Source: Synergistaceae bacterium (GTDB lineage Bacteria > Synergistota > Synergistia > Synergistales > Aminobacteriaceae). Taken from it: a stretch of 64,000 nt of DNA. The stretch is taken from assembly GCA_031272035.1 (NCBI GenBank), contig JAISUO010000034.1, positions 790 through 64,789 of the forward strand, read 5' to 3'. Positions within the stretch are counted from its first letter, which is position 1. The number at the start of each line of letters is the position of its first letter. Under the pieces are notes generated by a model that saw only the letters and a program-made list of their open reading frames with translations, was not told the origin of the DNA and searched no databases. Below are positions 18,191-26,874 of this stretch, in pieces. The position numbers and the translations under genes were made by a program.

Positions 18191-18209
18191 TCCATACCGC
18201 TCATTATAT

Positions 18210-18247
18210 TATTGAAAGAATCTATTGAAAGAATTTATTGAAAGAAT
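18210..18247. repeat. 3 x 13-bp tandem direct repeat (TATTGAAAGAAT + 1 nt)
   Basis: TATTGAAAGAAT occurs at 18210, 18223 and 18236, 20-57 nt upstream of the radA start on the minus strand. Confidence 0.9.
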
Positions 18248-18274
18248 GGGGTTGTCCGCCGGAAAATTGCCGGG

Positions 18275-19120
18275 TTACAGCGCGTATACGAGAGAGCCGT
18301 TTTGGGGCGGGGTCGCCGAGAGCATCCAAAGGGCTTTTTGAACCATTTCTTCTCGATATTTCACCTCATCCTCCCTGGACAGGCGCGGGTTTCCGAAAAC
18401 ACATTCCACGCTGTTGCCCCGGAGGATCCGGTTGACCCCGAAGCTTTCGGCAATTTTCGTCAGGTTGGTCGCCTGAACGACGGGAATGCCCACCCGTTCG
18501 ATTTCTCTGGCGATGATCGCCCCGCAGCGGGTGCTGGTGCCGCAGGTCGAAGAAAGAATGACCGCGTCCGCCTCCGTTTCTTTCAGGGAAAGCGCTATTT
18601 TCTCTCCGAAGGCCTCGCTGTTTTCCGCGGGCGTCATCACTCCAGCTAAAGTATAAAAAATGTCTGAAAGTTTCCCAATAACACCCTGACGCTCAAGACG
18701 GCGCAGGGCGTCTACCGGCATGAGTCGATTGGGGTCTTCGAGAATCAGCGCGTTGTTGTAACCCTGGTGACTGATTTCGTAGTCCTCCGGGGAGAGCTGT
18801 TCTTTTCCGTAAAAAGAGTAGATGCAGAATTTTTTGGCGTTTGAGGGCGTCACGTCGTCCGGATTCCCTTTGGGGACAAGGCCTCCGTCCGTCACAAGGG
18901 CGATCTTCGACTCCGACAGAGGACGCGAAAGGATGGGAACAGAGGAAATTTCGGCGTTCGGCATGGGAACTTCCGTGCAGTATTCCTCTTTTCTGTATTT
19001 TGCCAGAAGCATATTGATTCCCCGCTTTGGAGCGGGTACAGAGTAATCGACTGCCGTTTCTCCCACCCCTCTGAGAGCGTTGGGATTTCCCGCGCCGTAA
19101 ACGACCCCGAGATTTTTCAC
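18275..19120 (-). CDS. GrdB-family (glycine/sarcosine/betaine reductase component B) Cys paralogue, lacking the N-terminal domain
   Basis: 281 aa, collinear with residues ~160-438 of the selenoprotein at 21461..22777. It reads SSTCGTSTRCGA where the other gene has ST-UGA-GTSTRCGA. GTG start preceded by AAGGAGG. Confidence 0.7.
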   Translation of the reverse strand: MKNLGVVYGAGNPNALRGVGETAVDYSVPAPKRGINMLLAKYRKEEYCTEVPMPNAEISSVPILSRPLSESKIALVTDGGLVPKGNPDDVTPSNAKKFCIYSFYGKEQLSPEDYEISHQGYNNALILEDPNRLMPVDALRRLERQGVIGKLSDIFYTLAGVMTPAENSEAFGEKIALSLKETEADAVILSSTCGTSTRCGAIIAREIERVGIPVVQATNLTKIAESFGVNRILRGNSVECVFGNPRLSREDEVKYREEMVQKALWMLSATPPQNGSLVYAL

Positions 19121-19205
19121 AGGACAGAACCTCCTTTGTGTACCCTCTTATTGTATCTCATTCTTCGGTCCGGAAACCTCCGGGGACTCTTTTCATATTT
19201 CAGAC

Positions 19206-19841
19206 TCATTTTACATGCGAAACCTGAATTGTATTCTGTGTATTCTGGACGTCAGGTTCCTGACCGGCGGTTTTCTCGTCGGAGGGCGCGATGGAATAGC
19301 GGGATCCCGCCAGCATACTCACGCGGCGAAGCTGTTCGAAGCGGGCCATGTAATCGTCCTGCATACCCTGCTTTACCCAATCCATAACGATGCCCGCGTA
19401 GGAGTGCGCCTCCATGCGCGCCATCAGAAATAATTCTTCGTCGGCGAGTTTGCAGCCTGACTGACTGTAGATCGTGTTGATATGTATTTTCAGAAGCTCG
19501 AAGTAGAAGTCCACGAGGTAGTCCTGCAGCGAATTCTGCCCCGCGTAGTCCAGTGCTTCCAGATAGAAGTCCCGGTTGGCCTGCATGTATCGGCATAACC
19601 TGACAAAACCGTCAAACCAGCGGTCTGGTTCCGAAAAAGCGTTGATCTCGGGAAGGGTTTCGGAGTAAAAAATCCAGTTGATCAAATCATATTTGTCGTT
19701 GAAATGATAGTAAAAGGTATTCCGACTGATACCGCAGTACTCTGTAATATCGGAAACCGTTATTTTTGCCAGACTCTTTTCCTTCACCAGCGCTTTAAGC
19801 GCATCGACCAGAGCCTTTTTCATAAGCGCCGTCTTTGACAT
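19206..19841 (-). CDS. TetR/AcrR family transcriptional regulator
   Basis: N-terminal HTH (ITVSDITEYCGISRNTFYYHFNDKYDLINW). The ATG at 19841 is preceded by GAGGA; the track ORF extends to 19880. Confidence 0.85.
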   Translation of the reverse strand: MSKTALMKKALVDALKALVKEKSLAKITVSDITEYCGISRNTFYYHFNDKYDLINWIFYSETLPEINAFSEPDRWFDGFVRLCRYMQANRDFYLEALDYAGQNSLQDYLVDFYFELLKIHINTIYSQSGCKLADEELFLMARMEAHSYAGIVMDWVKQGMQDDYMARFEQLRRVSMLAGSRYSIAPSDEKTAGQEPDVQNTQNTIQVSHVK

Positions 19842-20052
19842 TTTCGTCCTCGTTTTGTTCAAGCTGAACCCGACAGACAAAACTTAAGCCGGAGGTCGAA
19901 AATTCTCCCCAAAGGTTCATGCAGCAGTTAAAATTTCTCAACATTTTTTGCGCAAATGAAGAATATTGTCCTAAAACCAAACATATTCAGCCAATTAACA
20001 ATTACGGGCGAACAATGATTCTTCCACGTATAAATTATACTATATGCCGTTT

Positions 20053-20092
20053 GTGTTGCTTTGTGTGTTGCTTTGCTTTGTGTGTTGCTTTG
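20053..20092. repeat. Three copies of GTGTTGCTTTG in the tetR / reductase-operon intergenic region
   Basis: Exact 11-mers at 20053, 20065 and 20082, about 50-90 nt upstream of the ATG at 20141. Confidence 0.9.
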
Positions 20093-20140
20093 AAAAATCT
20101 TTGAAATACAGACCCTGTACGGGGTCGGAAGGGAGAAATT

Positions 20141-21436
20141 ATGTGCAGGGAGCTTTCCATCGATTACGTGAATATACGCAACGTCATGTTTGGAAATCGC
20201 ACGGAACTGCGGAACGGCGTGCTGACGCTGGACAAAGAAGAACTCATGGCGCTGGCGAATAAACCCGTATTCGACTCTTTTGACATCAAAATCGCGTCTC
20301 CGGGGGACAGCTGTCGTATCCTCGGAGTTCACGAAGTCATGCAGCCTCGCTGTAAAGTCGACGCGCCGGAAACGTCATACCCTGGAGCATGGGGCAGTCT
20401 CGCCCCGGCGGGGGAGGGGAGAACCGTCGCGCTGCGGGGCGTCGTCATTACGGAGCTTTATTACCCCAAAGCCAACGTCAAGTGGTACCTGGATATGTGT
20501 GAACCCTGTTCTCATTACTCCTACTATGCCCGGCATCATCACATCATCCTGGACGCGACTCCCGGCAGCGGCATCAGTGACCTCACTTACAGCGAGGCGC
20601 TGAAACACTCCGCCCTCTCCATCAATGTCCACCTGGCGAAGCTGGCCATCGGTCAGACACCGGACAAAACAGAATTCTTTTCTCACCGTCCTCTGGATGA
20701 GGGGCAGAGGGGAAAAGACGGGAAAAAGCTGCCTCGCGTGGCGTATCTCTGCACGCTTCAGGCAACTACGGATTTTTGGAACTTTCTTTATTATGGCCAG
20801 AGCGCTGTCGGTTATCTGCCCATCATCGTGCAGCCCACCGAGATTCTGGACGGAGCGGTTATTTTTCGCTATTGGGAAAATACCTACGTGCTTCAGAACG
20901 ATCCCTACGTGAAGGAGCTCCTGAGCCGGCACGGCAAAGATCTCGATTTCGCCGGCGTCGTTTTCGCCAACAACACGATGAGAATAGGCGACAAAAGCGC
21001 GATGGGCCTGATCGCGGCCGGATTGTGCAAAAACACCCTCCGGGCGGATTGCGTCATGGTCAACAAGTCGGGAATGGGACACGCGCAGCTGGACGCGGTT
21101 ATGGCCTTCAACTGGTGCGAAAGCATGGGAATGACCGCGGCGGTCAACCTCGCCGGAGTCAGCAACGACACTCCGGGAGACATGCTGGTCATCGCCGATC
21201 CCAAAGTGGATGCCGTCGTCAACAGCGGCCGGCATTTTCTGCTCGAACATCCAAGGGTTGAGCGCCTCATCGGGGAGGACGTCAACGTTCCCAGTCTGCT
21301 GGGACTCGATCCGCGAGGTCCTTTTACGCACACGACCAACTACGCCTACGCGGGCGTTTACGGTCAGCTCGGAGACTGCTATCGAACCATGGACGACGAC
21401 ATCACATGGACCGCTCCGGAAGCCTGCGCTCAATGA
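20141..21436 (+). CDS. GrdE/GrdG/GrdI-family subunit of a glycine/sarcosine/betaine-type reductase component B
   Basis: 431 aa. Conserved family blocks LPRVAYLCTLQ, PTEILDGAV and RHGKDLDFAGVVF. RBS GGAAGGGAG. Confidence 0.8.
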   Translation: MCRELSIDYVNIRNVMFGNRTELRNGVLTLDKEELMALANKPVFDSFDIKIASPGDSCRILGVHEVMQPRCKVDAPETSYPGAWGSLAPAGEGRTVALRGVVITELYYPKANVKWYLDMCEPCSHYSYYARHHHIILDATPGSGISDLTYSEALKHSALSINVHLAKLAIGQTPDKTEFFSHRPLDEGQRGKDGKKLPRVAYLCTLQATTDFWNFLYYGQSAVGYLPIIVQPTEILDGAVIFRYWENTYVLQNDPYVKELLSRHGKDLDFAGVVFANNTMRIGDKSAMGLIAAGLCKNTLRADCVMVNKSGMGHAQLDAVMAFNWCESMGMTAAVNLAGVSNDTPGDMLVIADPKVDAVVNSGRHFLLEHPRVERLIGEDVNVPSLLGLDPRGPFTHTTNYAYAGVYGQLGDCYRTMDDDITWTAPEACAQ

Positions 21437-21460
21437 AACTGAAAACGAGGTGAAAAAGTC

Positions 21461-22777
21461 ATGGCAAAATACAGAATTGTACATTACGTCAACCAGTTTT
21501 ATGGCGGATTCGGCGGAGAAGACACGGCGGGAATGGGAATAGAGGTCCGCGAAAATCCGGTGGGACCCGGACTCGCCCTGCAGGCGGCCCTTGGCGAAGC
21601 GGGAACGGTGGTCGCCACGGTGATCTGCGGAGATAATTACGCGACAGAAAACCTCGAAAACGTGACGGAGGAAATCCTGAAGATCGTTGAAGGCTTTAAA
21701 CCGGACATATTCGTCGCCGGCCCCGGATTCAACGCCGGGCGCTACGGGCTGATCTGCGGCGCGGTGACCTCCAAAGTCGCCGAACAGCTGCTTATTCCGT
21801 CGGTCACGGCTCTCTATCAGGAAAACCCGGGAACGGATCTTTACAAGGACCGGTGTTACATTCTTAAAACGGACAACAACGCCCGCGACATGAAAAAGGT
21901 CATTTCCGAGCTGGCTCGTTTCGTTCTGCGCCTGGCCGCGGGGGAGGTCATCGGCAAGGGCGATGTGGAACACTACCACGGCAATGGCCCGGCGCCCCTG
22001 ATCGACTACTCTCTTCCAGCGCCGCGGCGGGGTGTGGATATGCTTCTCGCGAAACACGCGGGGTGTCCGTTCAAAACGGAGGTCGTCATACCCTCCCGGG
22101 AACCTGTTCCCATTCCCCGGCTTCACAAGCCGCTTTCGGAAATCAAACTGGCCCTCGTAACCGACGGAGGGCTCGTTCCAAAGGGTAACCCGGACAAAAT
22201 GGTCCCCACCAACTCCACCATGTTCAAATCCTACCCGATAGAGGGAAAAGAGCGTCTGGATGCTCAGGATTACGAGGTCAGCCATCAGGGATACAACAAC
22301 GCTTTCGTTTTACAAAATCCCAACCGGCTCGTCCCTCTGGACGCCGCGAGAACTCTGGTCGCCAGGGGGGAAATCGGGGAGCTCCTTGAGAAATACTACA
22401 CGACCGCGGGCGTGATGACGCCCATGGGCACAGGGAAAAAGTTCGGAGAAAATATCGCGAAAGAGCTGAAAGAAGCCGATGTGGACGCGGTGCTTCTCGT
22501 CTCCACCTGAGGAACGTCTACCCGCTGCGGTGCAGTGATGACAAAAGAGATAGAACGCGCCGGTTTACCTGTAGTTCACGTCACCAACCTCACAAAAATT
22601 GCCGAAGGCATCGGTTCCAAACGCATATTCAGAGGCAACAGCATCGTTCACGTTCTGGGAGATCCCCAGCTTTCACCCGACATGGAGGCACGGTACAGAG
22701 AACAGCTGCTGTCCCAGGCCCTGAAACTTCTGGAAGATGCTCCTGTCGACGAAACGAGCAGCATTATTTACGAATAG
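21461..22777 (+). CDS. GrdB/GrdF/GrdH-family selenoprotein B (in-frame UGA = selenocysteine at 22508-22510)
   Basis: ORFs 21461..22510 and 22535..22777 are in the same frame. Read-through gives ...VDAVLLVST-U-GTSTRCGAVMTKEIERAG..., and the Cys paralogue at 18275..19120 has Cys at the UGA position. Confidence 0.85.
22508..22510 (+). other. Selenocysteine (UGA) codon
   Basis: An in-frame TGA within a conserved ST-x-GTSTRCGA motif. It aligns to TGC (Cys) in the paralogue. Confidence 0.8.
22516..22542 (+). promoter_or_regulatory. Candidate bacterial SECIS hairpin
   Basis: Upper stem CGCUGC/GCAGUG (22523-22528 / 22532-22537) with a GGU apical loop, starting 12 nt after the UGA. A possible lower stem is GUCU/A-GAC. 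Confidence 0.5.
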
Positions 22778-22789
22778 GAGAGATTAGAA

Positions 22790-23515
22790 ATGGAGAATTA
22801 TCTGGTCATTGCGGAAGCCTTTCCCGTCTGGCTTTGTGTTGTTCCCGCCGTTGTTCTCGTTCTGTTTCAGGCGGCGATTTTCGTTAAAAAAGCCTATCGG
22901 GCCGGAGCCGAGATCGGCATGACTCAAAAGCAGCTCAACTCCGCCATACGAGCGAGCGCCATTTCTTCCATCGGGCCGGCTCTGGCCATTCTGTCCACGC
23001 TTTTGGCGCTGCTGGTATTGGTAGGAGGCCCCGTCGCCTGGATGCGCCTTTCCTACATCGGCAACATGCTTTTCGAGGCTTTGGCTTTTAACTTCGGGAT
23101 TACAGCCAGCGGCATCGAGACGGCTGCCGGTCAGGCCGTTACAGGGCAGGCGTTTGTGAACGGCGTTTGGGTCATGATTCTGGGCTCCATCGGCTGGATC
23201 ATCGTTTCGATTCTGATCACGGACAAAATGAACGTCGTGCAGCATAAAATTTCAGGCGGCAACCCGAGAGTCATGCAAATTATCGCCTCCTGCGCCATGA
23301 TTGCGGGCCTGGGTTCGCTTATCGTTCCCTATGTGGTGCCGATCTTCACGGCCGCGAAAGTCGACAGAAACGGTGTGTCCGCCATTGGCGGCGCCGCCGT
23401 CATGGCCGCAATCTGCGCTTTCAATAAAAAACGGAAAATCGGCTGGCTCGGCGAGTGGTCGCTGGCCTTCGCTATCCTGGGCGGCCTCGTGCTGGCGCTC
23501 TGCATAAAAAAGTGA
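22790..23515 (+). CDS. Uncharacterised integral membrane protein (about 6 TM)
   Basis: 241 aa, hydrophobic throughout. RBS GGAGAG. It starts 12 nt after the selenoprotein stop, so it is an operon member. Confidence 0.7.
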   Translation: MENYLVIAEAFPVWLCVVPAVVLVLFQAAIFVKKAYRAGAEIGMTQKQLNSAIRASAISSIGPALAILSTLLALLVLVGGPVAWMRLSYIGNMLFEALAFNFGITASGIETAAGQAVTGQAFVNGVWVMILGSIGWIIVSILITDKMNVVQHKISGGNPRVMQIIASCAMIAGLGSLIVPYVVPIFTAAKVDRNGVSAIGGAAVMAAICAFNKKRKIGWLGEWSLAFAILGGLVLALCIKK

Positions 23516-23545
23516 AACCGGGACAAAAAGAAGGAGAGATATAAA

Positions 23546-24232
23546 ATGGATAAACAGGCGATTCTCGATAAAGACTACATGCCCTACATCAACAAATGGG
23601 GAAAACTGACAAACACCGTGGGCGTGTTTTTCGCTTTCGTTCCGGTTATTTATTTCGGCGTGAGATACGGTTGGTGGCCGCAGCCTGGCCCCGTTTTTCA
23701 GGGCTGGCTCAGCATTTCCGCCAGCGCGGGAATCCTGTGGATTATGCAGCCCATACAGTTCTTCCCCGTCTTAGGCGTTGCGGGAACCTATATGTCCAAC
23801 CTGTCTGGAAACATCTCCAATATGCGGGTTCCCTGTTCCATCGCGGCGGAGCAGGCCGCCGGAGTTCAGCCGGGAACGCCCGAAGCGGAGATTTGCGCGA
23901 ACATCGGCTCGGCCGTGTCAACTCTCATCAATATTCTCGTTCTTTCCGCCGGCGTCCTCGCGGGGTCGTCCCTCCTGGCCCAACTGCCGCCCGCCGCCTC
24001 GGACGCGCTGAAAAGCCTGCTGGTTCCCGCTTTGATTGCCGCCTGCGTCGTCATGGTAGGATGGACCGAGCCTCGTATTCTTCCCCTTGCTTTCCTCCTC
24101 GCGGTTCTCACGCGCATCTTTTTCACGGTCTGTCTGCCCCGGCTCATGTCCATGGCCGACATCACGTCGATTTTTGTCGCGATCTTCGTTTGCGTCGCGC
24201 TGTATAAAATGAAAATTTACATCAGGGATTGA
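23546..24232 (+). CDS. Uncharacterised integral membrane protein (about 6 TM)
   Basis: 228 aa. RBS AAGGAGAG. Last gene before the terminator at 24273. Confidence 0.7.
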   Translation: MDKQAILDKDYMPYINKWGKLTNTVGVFFAFVPVIYFGVRYGWWPQPGPVFQGWLSISASAGILWIMQPIQFFPVLGVAGTYMSNLSGNISNMRVPCSIAAEQAAGVQPGTPEAEICANIGSAVSTLINILVLSAGVLAGSSLLAQLPPAASDALKSLLVPALIAACVVMVGWTEPRILPLAFLLAVLTRIFFTVCLPRLMSMADITSIFVAIFVCVALYKMKIYIRD

Positions 24233-24272
24233 TGGCTTTATAAGCAGCAAACCAGCGAACATATCGTTCAGG

Positions 24273-24305
24273 GGGCCGCTTTCACGAGCGGCCCTTTCGG
24301 TTTTT
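24273..24305 (+). terminator. Rho-independent terminator of the reductase operon
   Basis: GGGCCGCT-TTCACG-AGCGGCCC followed by TTTCGGTTTTT. Confidence 0.75.
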
Positions 24306-24482
24306 CCGACCCCGCTCGCAAATATCGGAAGAGCCGCAATATTCCCCTCCGTTCACAAGTCTCTCGATTGCTTCGGCGTTGATATAAGGTCCGACAAACT
24401 GCCAGGCCGAAGCAACGGAGCTTTTGCCTGAACCGTTCGGTCCCGCGAACACCAATATGTGCGGAGTGTCAGTCAAGATCAT
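24282..24482 (-). pseudogene. Zeta-toxin/AAA-like P-loop toxin remnant (truncated after about 66 aa)
   Basis: MILTDTPHILVFAGPNGSGKSS...YINAEAIERL matches the N-terminus of zeta/COG4185-type kinases. The reading frame then runs into the terminator hairpin and stops. The ATG overlaps the antitoxin stop by 14 nt. Confidence 0.55.
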
Positions 24483-24780
24483 AAACTCTCCTGCCGTCAG
24501 GGTATTCAAGGTACGGACAATTCTGTTCGTCGTCGAACAACGCTGTCGGAGTGCCGTTCTCGACGGCTTTGCTTATTTTTGCTCTGACGCTGCGGCGCAT
24601 AAGGACATCCTGAGGATCGCTGTCGAGTTCGAGTGCAAACGGAATTGACCGACTTCGGGCCACGCGGGTCAAAAAGATGTTGATGCCCGTACTCATATTC
24701 ATGCCCAGCGCGTTGAACACTGTTTCGGCGTTTCGTTTGACTGTGGAGTCAACACGGACGCTCAATCTTGTTTCGCCCAT
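24469..24780 (-). CDS. RelB/DinJ-family antitoxin
   Basis: RHH-type N-terminus (RLSVRVDSTVKRNAETVFNALGMNMSTGINIFLTRVA...IPFAL). The ATG at 24780 lies 7 nt after GGAGGTG. Confidence 0.7.
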   Translation of the reverse strand: MGETRLSVRVDSTVKRNAETVFNALGMNMSTGINIFLTRVARSRSIPFALELDSDPQDVLMRRSVRAKISKAVENGTPTALFDDEQNCPYLEYPDGRRVYDLD

Positions 24781-24904
24781 TATGGAACACCTCCGCATCC
24801 AATATGTTCCATTTATACATCCAATGGAGATACAATAGCAAGCGTTATATTTGGAAAAAGATTACTCCTCGAATAACATCCTCGAAAATTTCAAAAATTT
24901 CTCC

Positions 24905-24948
24905 TTGACAAATTTTTATAGAATGAATATACTAACGCTATTCATTCT
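24905..24948 (+). promoter_or_regulatory. Sigma70-like promoter with an overlapping 10-bp inverted repeat (putative Fur/PerR-type operator)
   Basis: TTGACA (24905-24910), 17 nt, TATACT (24928-24933). The perfect inverted repeat AGAATGAATA (24920-24929) / TATTCATTCT (24939-24948) spans the -10. Confidence 0.5.
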
Positions 24949-25005
24949 TAATAGCTTAAATGAATCCGCCTCACGCGGAAAAACAAAGGGGGCGACGGAG
25001 CGGGG

Positions 25006-25422
25006 ATGAAAGATTTCGACCCCAGCCCTGCGCAAACACTTATTCGGCGTCAGACGGTGCAGAGGAAACTGGTTTTAGACGCGGTTCGCGCGGGTTGTCA
25101 CCCGTCGGCGCGGGAGATATTCGTCTCGGTTTCCCAGTCGGCCCGCGTCAGTTTCGGAACGGTCTACAGGAACCTGCAGGTTCTGGAGGAGGAGGGCGAA
25201 ATCGCTCGCGTTGAAATAGACCCGGAGGTAGTTCGCTACGACTGGAAACTGACGCCTCATCATCATTTCCGATGCGTGAAATGCGGGCGCGTGTTGGATT
25301 TCCCCGTGCCCTGCCGCGTCGAGTTGGACAGGGACGCGGAGGAGGAAAGCGGTTTTGTAGTCGAGCGCCGCCTCGTGGCTTTCGAGGGGATTTGTCCGGA
25401 GTGCCGAAGTTCGGACGCCTGA
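25006..25422 (+). CDS. Fur-family (Fur/PerR/Zur) transcriptional regulator
   Basis: Winged-helix N-domain, HHHFRCVKCG and CPEC metal-site motifs. 138 aa. Confidence 0.85.
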   Translation: MKDFDPSPAQTLIRRQTVQRKLVLDAVRAGCHPSAREIFVSVSQSARVSFGTVYRNLQVLEEEGEIARVEIDPEVVRYDWKLTPHHHFRCVKCGRVLDFPVPCRVELDRDAEEESGFVVERRLVAFEGICPECRSSDA

Positions 25423-25616
25423 GTCGTTTCTCCAAAAGGAGAGCGTTTTATTTTAAGCAATAAATAATAACGATTCCTGTTATTGTTTATTCCTGGATTA
25501 GCTTCCCTGACTTTAGAAAGGTGATCTGTGAAGAATGCCAAAATACTGGTATATCGGGAGTACTGGCAGGATTGCCCTGCTTAAATACGTGTGCTGCGGG
25601 AGCACGAAGACATCCC

Positions 25617-25638
25617 GCAAATATATTGCAAATATATT
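25617..25638. repeat. 2 x 11-bp exact tandem repeat GCAAATATATT abutting the RBS
   Basis: Copies at 25617-25627 and 25628-25638, immediately upstream of GAAGGAGGAG. Confidence 0.9.
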
Positions 25639-25655
25639 GAAGGAGGAGAATGGTT

Positions 25656-26225
25656 ATGAGAAGTTTCACAACGCTGGACCTGCAATACGCTCACAGATTT
25701 TACGGATTCAAAGGTGAAGCCCAGTATTTGCACGGGCACACGGGGATACTGACGCTTGAGGTCGAGGATACCATCAACGCGGGCGTCAATATGGTTTTTC
25801 CCTGCAACGAAATTAAGAAAACCGCCTGGGAAGTTTTACAAAACTTTGACCACGCACTGATTCTCAGAGAGGACGACCCGCTGCTTCCCGCGATTCTTGG
25901 CGTTTACGAGACACAGGGCATCAAGGACGGAGCACCGAGCAATAAACAGAAAGGCCCCGCTTTCAAAACGGAGCTTGCGACAGCGTATCCCGAATGTCGT
26001 TTGGTGGTCACGAAAGAAACGATGACCGTTGAGGGCATGATTAAGATCGTTTACGATTTGCTTAAAGACAAGCTGAATATTGTTAAAATCACCTTCACGA
26101 GCGGAGTAAACGGCGCTGTGCAGGAATACAGCGAAAAACACCAGAAAGAACAGGACCGTTGCCCGTTGTGCGGAATTGCTCTGAACAAAGACGGCGTGTG
26201 TCCAAAATGCGGTTACAGGAAATAG
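25656..26225 (+). CDS. 6-pyruvoyl-tetrahydropterin synthase / QueD-family protein with a C-terminal zinc ribbon
   Basis: HRFYGFKGEAQYLHGHTG (PTPS HGH motif), plus a C-terminal CPLCG...CPKCG. The second ATG (25656) has better spacing to the RBS than 25650. Confidence 0.65.
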   Translation: MRSFTTLDLQYAHRFYGFKGEAQYLHGHTGILTLEVEDTINAGVNMVFPCNEIKKTAWEVLQNFDHALILREDDPLLPAILGVYETQGIKDGAPSNKQKGPAFKTELATAYPECRLVVTKETMTVEGMIKIVYDLLKDKLNIVKITFTSGVNGAVQEYSEKHQKEQDRCPLCGIALNKDGVCPKCGYRK

Positions 26226-26313
26226 TCGAAAGGTCATAAATCCAGGCAGTGTCATTAAAAAGCTGCAGGACTGGCGGGAATTGCGATCATGTTCCCGCCA
26301 GTCTCTTTTTCGG

Positions 26314-26874
26314 TTACAGGTTCAAACGCATATAGGCGTTGTCGATATCGTCCTGCTCAATGCCGATGTATCGCAGAGTGTCCACGCTCATGGAGTGGTT
26401 CAGGAGCTTCTGGACCAGCCCCAGATCTCCCGTACGGCGGTATACGTGATACCCGAAGGTTTTTCTCAAAGTGTGGGTGCCGATGGCATCCAGTCCCACA
26501 TCCCGGGCGACGTCGGAGAGAATGCGCCAGGCCTGTACTCTGGAAATGGGCCTTGCGCCTCTGGCCGATGCGAAAAGAAACTCGGTGTCATCCATCTCGT
26601 CTGTCAGACAGCTTTTCAGCGTTCGAGTGACCGAGAAATTCAGGGGAAAGCGTTTTATCTTTCCCGTTTTGGCCTCCTGAAGGTAAAGGCAGGTGCGCAG
26701 CTGCCCATTGTCGTTACGAACATCCCGCACCGTAAGAGACAGGAGGTCGCCGATTCGAAGCGCGGTGTTGATGCCCATCACGAAAAGCAGCAAATCCCGA
26801 GGATTTTTTCCCCGGAGGATCCGTTTCATCGACTTGATTTTGCCTGTGCTGCGAATGGGTTCCACAATCCTCAT
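26314..26874 (-). CDS. Small tyrosine-type site-specific recombinase (catalytic domain only, FimB/FimE-sized)
   Basis: 186 aa. Motifs ALRIGDLLSL (Arg I), HTLRKTF (H-x-x-R) and LLNHS...TLRY (His / Tyr nucleophile). Confidence 0.8.
   Translation of the reverse strand: MRIVEPIRSTGKIKSMKRILRGKNPRDLLLFVMGINTALRIGDLLSLTVRDVRNDNGQLRTCLYLQEAKTGKIKRFPLNFSVTRTLKSCLTDEMDDTEFLFASARGARPISRVQAWRILSDVARDVGLDAIGTHTLRKTFGYHVYRRTGDLGLVQKLLNHSMSVDTLRYIGIEQDDIDNAYMRLNL

Follow-up and report, generated by a model that had tools for sequence, protein, structure and literature searches.

The window analysed here comprises 64,000 nt of contig JAISUO010000034.1 (positions 790 to 64,789 of the forward strand, assembly GCA_031272035.1) of a Synergistaceae bacterium. 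Between positions 21461 and 22777 it carries two open reading frames (ORFs) of the same frame, separated by a UGA codon. We are highly confident that both belong to one gene for a 438-residue selenoprotein with selenocysteine (Sec, U) at residue 350, which represents a GrdB-type subunit of the far (fluoroacetate reductase) clade and is accompanied by a FarE-type partner. The selenoprotein is of the textbook bacterial type and belongs to a well-known family, the sub-family in question having been described in 2023. The central features of the locus are:

20141..21436, plus strand: farE-type gene, non-pyruvoyl partner of the GrdE family, 431 residues, NF053623 694.1 bits (cutoff 675)
21461..22777, plus strand: farB-type gene, selenoprotein B subunit, 438 residues, read through one UGA
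22508..22510, plus strand: UGA, predicted selenocysteine codon, residue 350, motif ST-U-GTSTRCG; TGA kept in homologues, Cys in short paralogues
22523..22537, plus strand: hairpin of selenocysteine insertion sequence (SECIS) type, 6-bp stem CGCUGC/GCAGUG with GGU loop, identified by covariation and the Rfam RF01990 alignment

The farB-type gene starts with ATG 21461, preceded by a Shine-Dalgarno sequence (GAGGTG) 8 nt upstream, and ends with TAG 22775-22777. TGA 22508-22510 is located in the same frame, and the product reads ...VDAVLLVST-U-GTSTRCGAVMTKEIERAG around residue 350. The original prediction, made from the sequence alone, had proposed that an in-frame TGA joins the ORFs 21461..22510 and 22535..22777, whose starts are both congruent to 2 mod 3. 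The coordinates bear this out, the frame being open to the TAG over 438 residues. A split into a 349-residue protein and an 80-residue orphan had been anticipated for standard gene callers, and the mechanical ORF list gives exactly these two entries (21461..22510, and GTG 22535 to 22777). This list is what speaks for two genes, i.e., a 349-residue protein and a separately translated 80-residue protein starting at GTG 22535. Such an arrangement is rejected as highly improbable, since neither a ribosome-binding site nor a Shine-Dalgarno sequence was found 5' of GTG 22535, the 24 nt separating the two ORFs encode the conserved motif GTSTRCGA, and family models align across the TGA. TIGR01918 (glycine/betaine/sarcosine/D-proline reductase selenoprotein B) matches residues 5-426 with 409.8 bits (curated cutoff 65.45 bits) and NF040794 aligns to residues 1-431, both unbroken across the UGA. 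Together with Pfam GRDB (PF07355; 426.7 bits versus a cutoff of 22, E = 1e-127), these matches establish the membership in the GrdB family that had been suggested.

Compared to the closest orthologue, 81, 52, and 200 differences were counted at codon positions 1, 2, and 3 before the UGA, and 19, 10, and 41 after it. The 88 codons 3' of the UGA contain 35 synonymous and 20 non-synonymous changes. Due to this codon-position bias, the downstream piece is considered to be under purifying selection in the same frame. One in-frame TGA is present in every full-length homologue among the matches listed from 268 scanned Synergistota genomes, as well as in 47 of 47 partner genes adjoining FarE-type or related GrdE-type genes, which stem from Synergistota, Lachnospiraceae, Clostridium, Oscillospiraceae, Atopobiaceae, and other metagenome-assembled genomes (MAGs). 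The TGA is kept in all of the approximately 60 full-length homologues examined, and a full-length Cys variant was not seen among them. Homologues ending at the TGA had been named in advance as evidence to the contrary; none do so, and conservation extends over the 88 residues that follow it.

The short paralogue at 18275..19120, which is 53% identical to FarB residues 161-437, i.e., to the C-terminal two thirds only, reads ...AVILSSTCGTSTRCGAIIAREIER and has a Cys codon opposite U350, confirming the Sec/Cys signature described in the original prediction. A conversion of TGC or TGT to TGA requires a single base change and this Cys paralogue is situated only 2.3 kb away, which would fit a pseudogene in which a Cys codon became TGA and merely a truncated 349-residue fragment is made. 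This explanation is very unlikely and is rejected, since the TGA is retained in the approximately 60 full-length homologues, purifying selection acts on the frame 3' of it, the SECIS element covaries, and the decoding machinery is present (the latter two are described below). In case of farE, the DUF5058 gene, orf228, and tetR in the vicinity, TGA is the normal stop codon, and therefore the genetic code is standard. In-frame TGAs occur in the genome only at the known Sec sites of grdA, grdB, and selD. A genome-wide reassignment of UGA to Trp or Gly, in favour of which nothing beyond the open frame can be stated, is rejected on these grounds as having practically no probability. From these comparisons, UGA 22508-22510 is predicted to be decoded as Sec350. 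The canonical redox motif U-x-x-C-x-x-C (U-G-T-C-T-R-C) is modified to U-G-T-S-T-R-C, with Ser in place of the first Cys.

An AlphaFold2 model (31 homologues; mean predicted local distance difference test score 89.9) comprises two alpha/beta domains, and Sec350 is placed at the junction of strand 343-347 with helix 351-366. A search of the PDB with the farB-type sequence gave no match at E <= 0.01, and a PDB fold search with the model returned generic alpha/beta matches only (template modelling score <= 0.24) and no structural homologue.

The search for selA, selB, selC, and selD recommended in the original prediction had a positive outcome. The genes selA, selB, and selD and a tRNA-Sec are all present in the host genome, and all four exceed their curated cutoffs. 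The selB gene (357 bits, cutoff 242) adjoins selA (544 bits, cutoff 268) on contig C49; the tRNA-Sec (75.9 bits, cutoff 47) has the anticodon TCA and is also called as tRNA-SeC (TCA) by ARAGORN; and selD (336 bits) is located on contig C15 (12641-13573, locus L010) and contains one in-frame TGA. The selD gene of this genome thus probably encodes a selenoprotein itself. Furthermore, a complete cluster of grdE, grdA (TGA), grdB (TGA), grdC, and grdD is situated on contig C14, so that the components required by the published model, protein A and protein C, are available to the orphan protein B pair of the window.

The hairpin CGCUGC-GGU-GCAGUG, which had been proposed to follow 12 nt past the UGA, was recovered at 22523-22537. 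Its arms (22523-22528 and 22532-22537) enclose the GGU loop (22529-22531), the first stem nucleotide follows 12 nt after the UGA, and the loop G and the U of the UGA are 21 nt apart. In the recommended check with a SECIS model, Rfam SECIS_4 (RF01990) predicts an identical stem and GGU loop and aligns over model positions 1-38 of 38 to 22511-22548 (E = 0.018, search space 301 nt), yet the score of 21.4 bits remains under the gathering threshold of 38. This low score counts against a SECIS element, as does the observation that shuffled sequence folds at least as well as the 66-nt stretch alone (z = +0.8). The latter test is not informative, and the decisive support for the hairpin comes from sequence comparison. 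In a gap-free alignment of 33 UGA genes the six stem pairs are formed in 97.4% of the cells, and in three of the six pairs both partners have changed (U-A to C-G or A-U; U-A to G-C; C-G to A-U). None of 500 shuffles matched the observed pairing or covariation, and slid controls, in which the partner was moved by 1-3 columns, were paired in 16-69% of the cells. Some of the compensations combine a synonymous Arg change (CGU to CGC) on one arm with a change of Thr ACG to Val GUG on the other. For the ten short paralogues with Cys, the corresponding columns are paired in 51.7% of the cells, equal to the shuffles, and judging from this alignment the SECIS hairpin is lost in all Cys paralogues. Computed hairpin energies amount to -7.6 kcal/mol for the window, -7.1 kcal/mol for the canonical grdB of the same genome, -5.3 kcal/mol for farB of the Cloacibacillus porcorum type, and +3.2 kcal/mol for the Cys paralogue of the window.

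The canonical grdB SECIS of the host, with the same architecture as the farB-type element, reaches 64.9 bits on RF01990, compared to 21.4 bits for the window element, and the SECIS elements of the far sub-type B (see below) were not detected by RF01990 even at E <= 10. The far-type SECIS therefore represents a divergent variant below Rfam thresholds, and the SECIS_4 threshold misses it. As in the RF01990 model, the window element has a 6-bp stem and a GGU loop, and their codon positions are identical. In contrast to the model, the two outer pairs are not formed, and the stem contains one change of U-A to C-G and one of G-C to G-U. Supported by covariation, the hairpin is classified as a grdB-type SECIS. 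This covariation proof of the far-type SECIS is new in this analysis.

As for the type of reductase, all equivalog models of the family remain below their cutoffs with the farB-type protein, i.e., TIGR01917 (381 bits, cutoff 602), NF040794 (458, cutoff 800), NF040795 (381, cutoff 775), and TIGR04483 (81, cutoff 300). These scores speak against an identity as GrdB (glycine), GrdF (sarcosine), GrdH (betaine), or PrdB (proline). In the phylum scan, approximately 15 loci in approximately 13 genomes matched with 566-717 bits (58-71% identity), and all remaining matches had at most 410 bits. In a maximum-likelihood tree the far-type group is split from ordinary GrdB by a long branch (support 100/100), and the window protein is placed within the far-type clade (98/99). 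The farE-type gene (PF09338, E = 3e-74) ends 24 nt 5' of the farB start. Where GrdE of the same host has GNCVSACDKNSTY, a segment with the two self-cleavage cysteines, FarE has a 6-residue deletion in common with all FarE proteins, and due to the lack of this segment it is expected to be uncleaved and to carry no pyruvoyl group. FarE was likewise described as a non-pyruvoyl subunit by Leong et al. 2023 (PMC10838667), who published the far operon together with a proposed chemistry. On the basis of models, tree, and partner gene, the window gene is assigned to the far type and not to the glycine, sarcosine, or betaine type (GrdB/F/H). Both the pairing with a FarE-type subunit and the assignment to the far-type clade are new in this analysis, as are the separation of types A and B, the broad occurrence beyond the Synergistota, the conserved module of TetR and short paralogue, and the insertion context, which are described below.

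With FarB and FarE of C. porcorum MFA1 the window proteins share 58-63% and 62-64% identity, respectively. Sec occupies the same position, the SECIS hairpin is found in the same place, and FarE of both lacks the self-cleavage cysteines. In addition, both loci have a TetR gene as well as a short paralogue with Cys in their vicinity, and a separate grdA/C/D cluster is needed. Differences to C. porcorum are given by the host, which belongs to a different Synergistota family, and by the accessory genes: the window operon is devoid of the major facilitator superfamily (MFS) gene farA and the radical S-adenosylmethionine (SAM) gene farC and contains DUF5058 and orf228 instead. GrdB (TIGR01917; own copy on C14) resembles the window protein in family (TIGR01918/PF07355), length, Sec position, hairpin architecture, and distance of the hairpin from the UGA. 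However, the GrdB of the host is only 40% identical to it, the partner subunit in the window is not a pyruvoyl proprotein, and the window protein has Ser in place of the first Cys of U-x-x-C-x-x-C. The protein B of betaine reductase, GrdH/GrdI, consists of a Sec subunit and an unprocessed GrdE homologue and needs no Schiff base (PMC10838667). The window pair shares this composition, but its NF040795 score is far below the cutoff and its operon is devoid of a betaine transporter.

Two active-site sub-types with different accessory genes can be distinguished in the far family by sequence comparison. Type A has the motif ST-U-GTS[ST]RCGAV and includes the window protein (U-GTSTRCG), and type B has ETST-U-GTS[ST]RGG[SA]. 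Type B is monophyletic (support 100/98), whereas the type A lineages do not form one clade (34/9); the window protein pairs with that of G048, Synergistales bacterium PG1894_187 (100/100). The eight published primers for quantitative polymerase chain reaction of strain MFA1 all map with 0-2 mismatches to locus L065 of a complete 3.59-Mb genome. They occur there in the order farA-farC-farE-farB and yield amplicons of 179, 199, 182, and 189 bp, as published. Since L065 is of type B (GTSSRGG), a response to fluoroacetate has been demonstrated for a type B operon only, and only this sub-type is tied experimentally to fluoroacetate. Neither the sub-types A and B nor homologues outside the Synergistota are treated in Leong et al. 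2023 or in a 2025 review.

Several observations weigh against equating the window pair with the published system. FarE exceeds the NF053623 cutoff by only 19 bits, and the closest orthologue (669 bits) is below it; window and G048, with 694 and 669 bits, are the most divergent, other partners of both types reaching 756-935 bits. The published FarB "lacks the conserved CxxC" (PMC10838667) and has lost both cysteines (U-GTSSRGG), whereas the window FarB keeps the second one (GTSTRCG). The fluoroacetate-induced operon of C. porcorum belongs to the type B sub-clade (100/98), which does not include the window protein. Finally, homologues of farA and farC are absent from the 64-kb window according to tblastn; in the rest of the genome, the best match to farC is a 37%-identical radical-SAM paralogue on another contig, and no farA was found. 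A lack of these genes is known from C. evryensis (without farC) and P. piscolens (without farA and farC; PMC10838667).

The following further features are associated with the pair:

22790..23515, plus strand: DUF5058 polytopic membrane protein, candidate transporter part, 241 residues, PF16481 E = 1.7e-59, five hydrophobic segments
23546..24232, plus strand: orf228, unclassified polytopic membrane protein, 228 residues, about six hydrophobic segments
24270..24297, plus strand: intrinsic terminator, 12-bp stem with 7 GC pairs, T-rich tail
19206..19880, minus strand: divergent gene for a TetR-family regulator, Pfam TetR_N and TetR_C_8
18275..19120, minus strand: short Cys paralogue, 281 residues, equivalent to the FarB linker plus C-terminal domain, own ribosome-binding site AAGGAGG

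The operon runs in the order farE, farB, DUF5058, and orf228, followed by the terminator. The DUF5058 gene is syntenic in G048 and L117, and no Pfam match was obtained for orf228. Both genes also occur as a pair in G048, in L117 of a Pyramidobacter MAG, and in L119 of a Clostridiales MAG, where they adjoin a different GrdE/GrdB pair. Their recurrence next to different GrdE/GrdB genes is consistent with a role in transport, and we regard DUF5058 and orf228 as a candidate two-part substrate transporter. It was further noted that DUF5058 and the protein of about 228 residues are always paired and located beside GrdE/GrdB-type genes, in four different arrangements (window 22790-24232; L073 11651-13038; L117 4483-5885; L119 13715-15007).

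The neighbourhood was surveyed for 51 far-type loci, 33 loci of type A and 16 of type B being tabulated. Transporters of the L-lactate-permease family were observed next to 17 of 33 type A and 4 of 16 type B loci, and MFS FarA next to 2 of 33 and 11 of 16, respectively. Radical-SAM FarC occurs at 4/33 type A and 5/16 type B loci, and DsbA-like proteins at 5/33 and 9/16. Alpha/beta hydrolases and M20 amidohydrolases recur as well, mainly at type A loci.

A TetR gene is situated beside far-type pairs in 31 of the 51 loci. In the Synergistota genomes G153 and G157, TetR and the short paralogue form a single ORF (525 and 545 residues, respectively). The short paralogue of the window is devoid of a SECIS element and branches inside the far-type super-clade, and in all short copies a Cys codon is present while the SECIS hairpin has been lost. 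Fusions and co-occurrence suggest that the short paralogue works with the repressor, and perhaps it acts as ligand sensor of the TetR protein. As a separate observation, farE-farB pairs of various phyla are accompanied, in varying arrangements, by a TetR gene and, behind it, a short copy of the FarB C-terminal domain with Cys (e.g., window 18275-19880 on the minus strand, L068 6409-7986, and L071/L099). The tetR/farE intergenic region (20053-20092) is AT-rich (guanine-plus-cytosine (GC) content 0.41) and contains tandem 11-mer repeats; a simple scan called no sigma-70-like promoter there.

The distance between a small tyrosine recombinase gene (26314-26874) and radA is 8.1 kb in the window, compared to approximately 94 nt in two genomes of the same genus. 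The stretch 18200-26300 has a GC content of 0.41-0.59 versus 0.60-0.65 in the flanks and contains the whole far-type module, along with genes for a RelB-like antitoxin (with P-loop remnant), a Fur-family protein, and a PTPS-like protein. No far-type gene was found in the two same-genus genomes, which are 88% and 82% complete. FarE/FarB pairs of the far type with UGA and SECIS were also found outside the Synergistota (loci L073-L114), with Faecalimonas umbilicata, Hespellia stercorisuis, Bariatricus massiliensis, Catonella morbi, Clostridium lapidicellarium, C. aromativorans, Olsenella absiana, and many MAGs of the Lachnospiraceae and Oscillospiraceae as hosts. The insertion context, the absence from the same-genus genomes, and the spread across phyla point to horizontal acquisition, and the 8.1-kb stretch 18200-26300 is likely a horizontally acquired insertion. 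In the 2023 paper, far genes were reported for a "small number of Synergistota" (PMC10838667). According to the homologues collected here, type A is widespread in gut Firmicutes and Actinobacteria, and the family extends far beyond the Synergistota.

From the established glycine reductase scheme and the published far chemistry (PMC10838667) we infer the following mechanism. SelB with Sec-tRNA(Sec) would be recruited by the hairpin 22523-22537 and Sec would be inserted at UGA 22508-22510. The FarE/FarB-type complex would act as substrate-specific protein B binding a 2-substituted acetate (X-CH2-COO-). Given the lack of a pyruvoyl group, the substrate would have to bear a leaving group that requires no Schiff base, as do betaine and fluoroacetate. 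The selenolate of Sec350 would attack C2 of the substituted acetate and displace the leaving group, and the carboxymethyl group would be passed on to the GrdA selenoprotein and converted by GrdC/GrdD to acetyl phosphate, GrdA being re-reduced by thioredoxin. Import of the substrate, possibly fluoroacetate or a similar compound, is probably accomplished by the two membrane proteins encoded downstream, and the operon is probably under the control of the divergent TetR.

Concerning the substrate, the pair may constitute a true fluoroacetate reductase with the substrate of C. porcorum FarEB, in which DUF5058 and the 228-residue protein replace FarA as importer. The position of FarE above the NCBIfam equivalog cutoff speaks for this, as do the top NF053623 scores, which are obtained with type A partners of Pyramidobacter-like genomes (910-935 bits). 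Moreover, P. piscolens is reported to degrade fluoroacetate, at 30% of the amount degraded by C. porcorum, with an operon devoid of the transporter and radical-SAM genes (PMC10838667, supplementary table 4). As we infer, this description fits the type A loci L060/L061 better than L068, a type B locus with an MFS gene upstream. However, the sole operon shown to be fluoroacetate-responsive is of type B according to the primer mapping, and the lineage of the window is the most divergent branch (FarE 694 and 669 bits versus 756-935 bits elsewhere). Furthermore, type A is common in gut Lachnospiraceae, usually next to a transporter of the lactate-permease family, alpha/beta hydrolases, and M20 amidohydrolases; its frequency and neighbours point to a commoner natural substrate than a rare plant toxin. 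We thus consider fluoroacetate as the proper substrate to be possible but rather doubtful.

About even chances are given to a Stickland-type reductase for a different substituted acetate, with fluoroacetate as a side substrate at most. The active site with S-x-x-C in place of the S-x-x-G of type B, the lactate-permease-family genes at 17 of 33 type A loci versus MFS FarA at 11 of 16 type B loci, and the distribution of the type over four phyla of gut and digester anaerobes are in good agreement with such an enzyme, and the authors of the 2023 study themselves propose another compound as possible preferred substrate (PMC10838667). On the other hand, the gene context yields no candidate substrate, NCBIfam curators hold both types as one equivalog, and type A is not a separate clade in the tree (34/9).

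It is tempting to combine these observations. The type A pair (Sec-x-x-Ser-x-x-Cys) might be a separate Stickland-type reductase for a common substituted acetate other than fluoroacetate, spread horizontally over at least four phyla of gut and digester anaerobes. It would travel with a TetR repressor and a Cys copy of the C-terminal domain (fused in two genomes) as possible ligand sensor, and in the lineage of the window the DUF5058 and 228-residue transporter would supply the substrate. This combined reading is tentative, its probability being somewhat short of even.

At the level of annotation, one enzyme subunit of 438 residues takes the place of a truncated protein and an orphan. To our knowledge, far-type reductases are the only anaerobic, selenium-dependent route by which the C-F bond of fluoroacetate is broken, and they matter for livestock poisoning as well as for defluorination research. 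The far genes of common gut Lachnospiraceae, Clostridium, Oscillospiraceae, and Atopobiaceae provide a concrete set for tests of substrate range.

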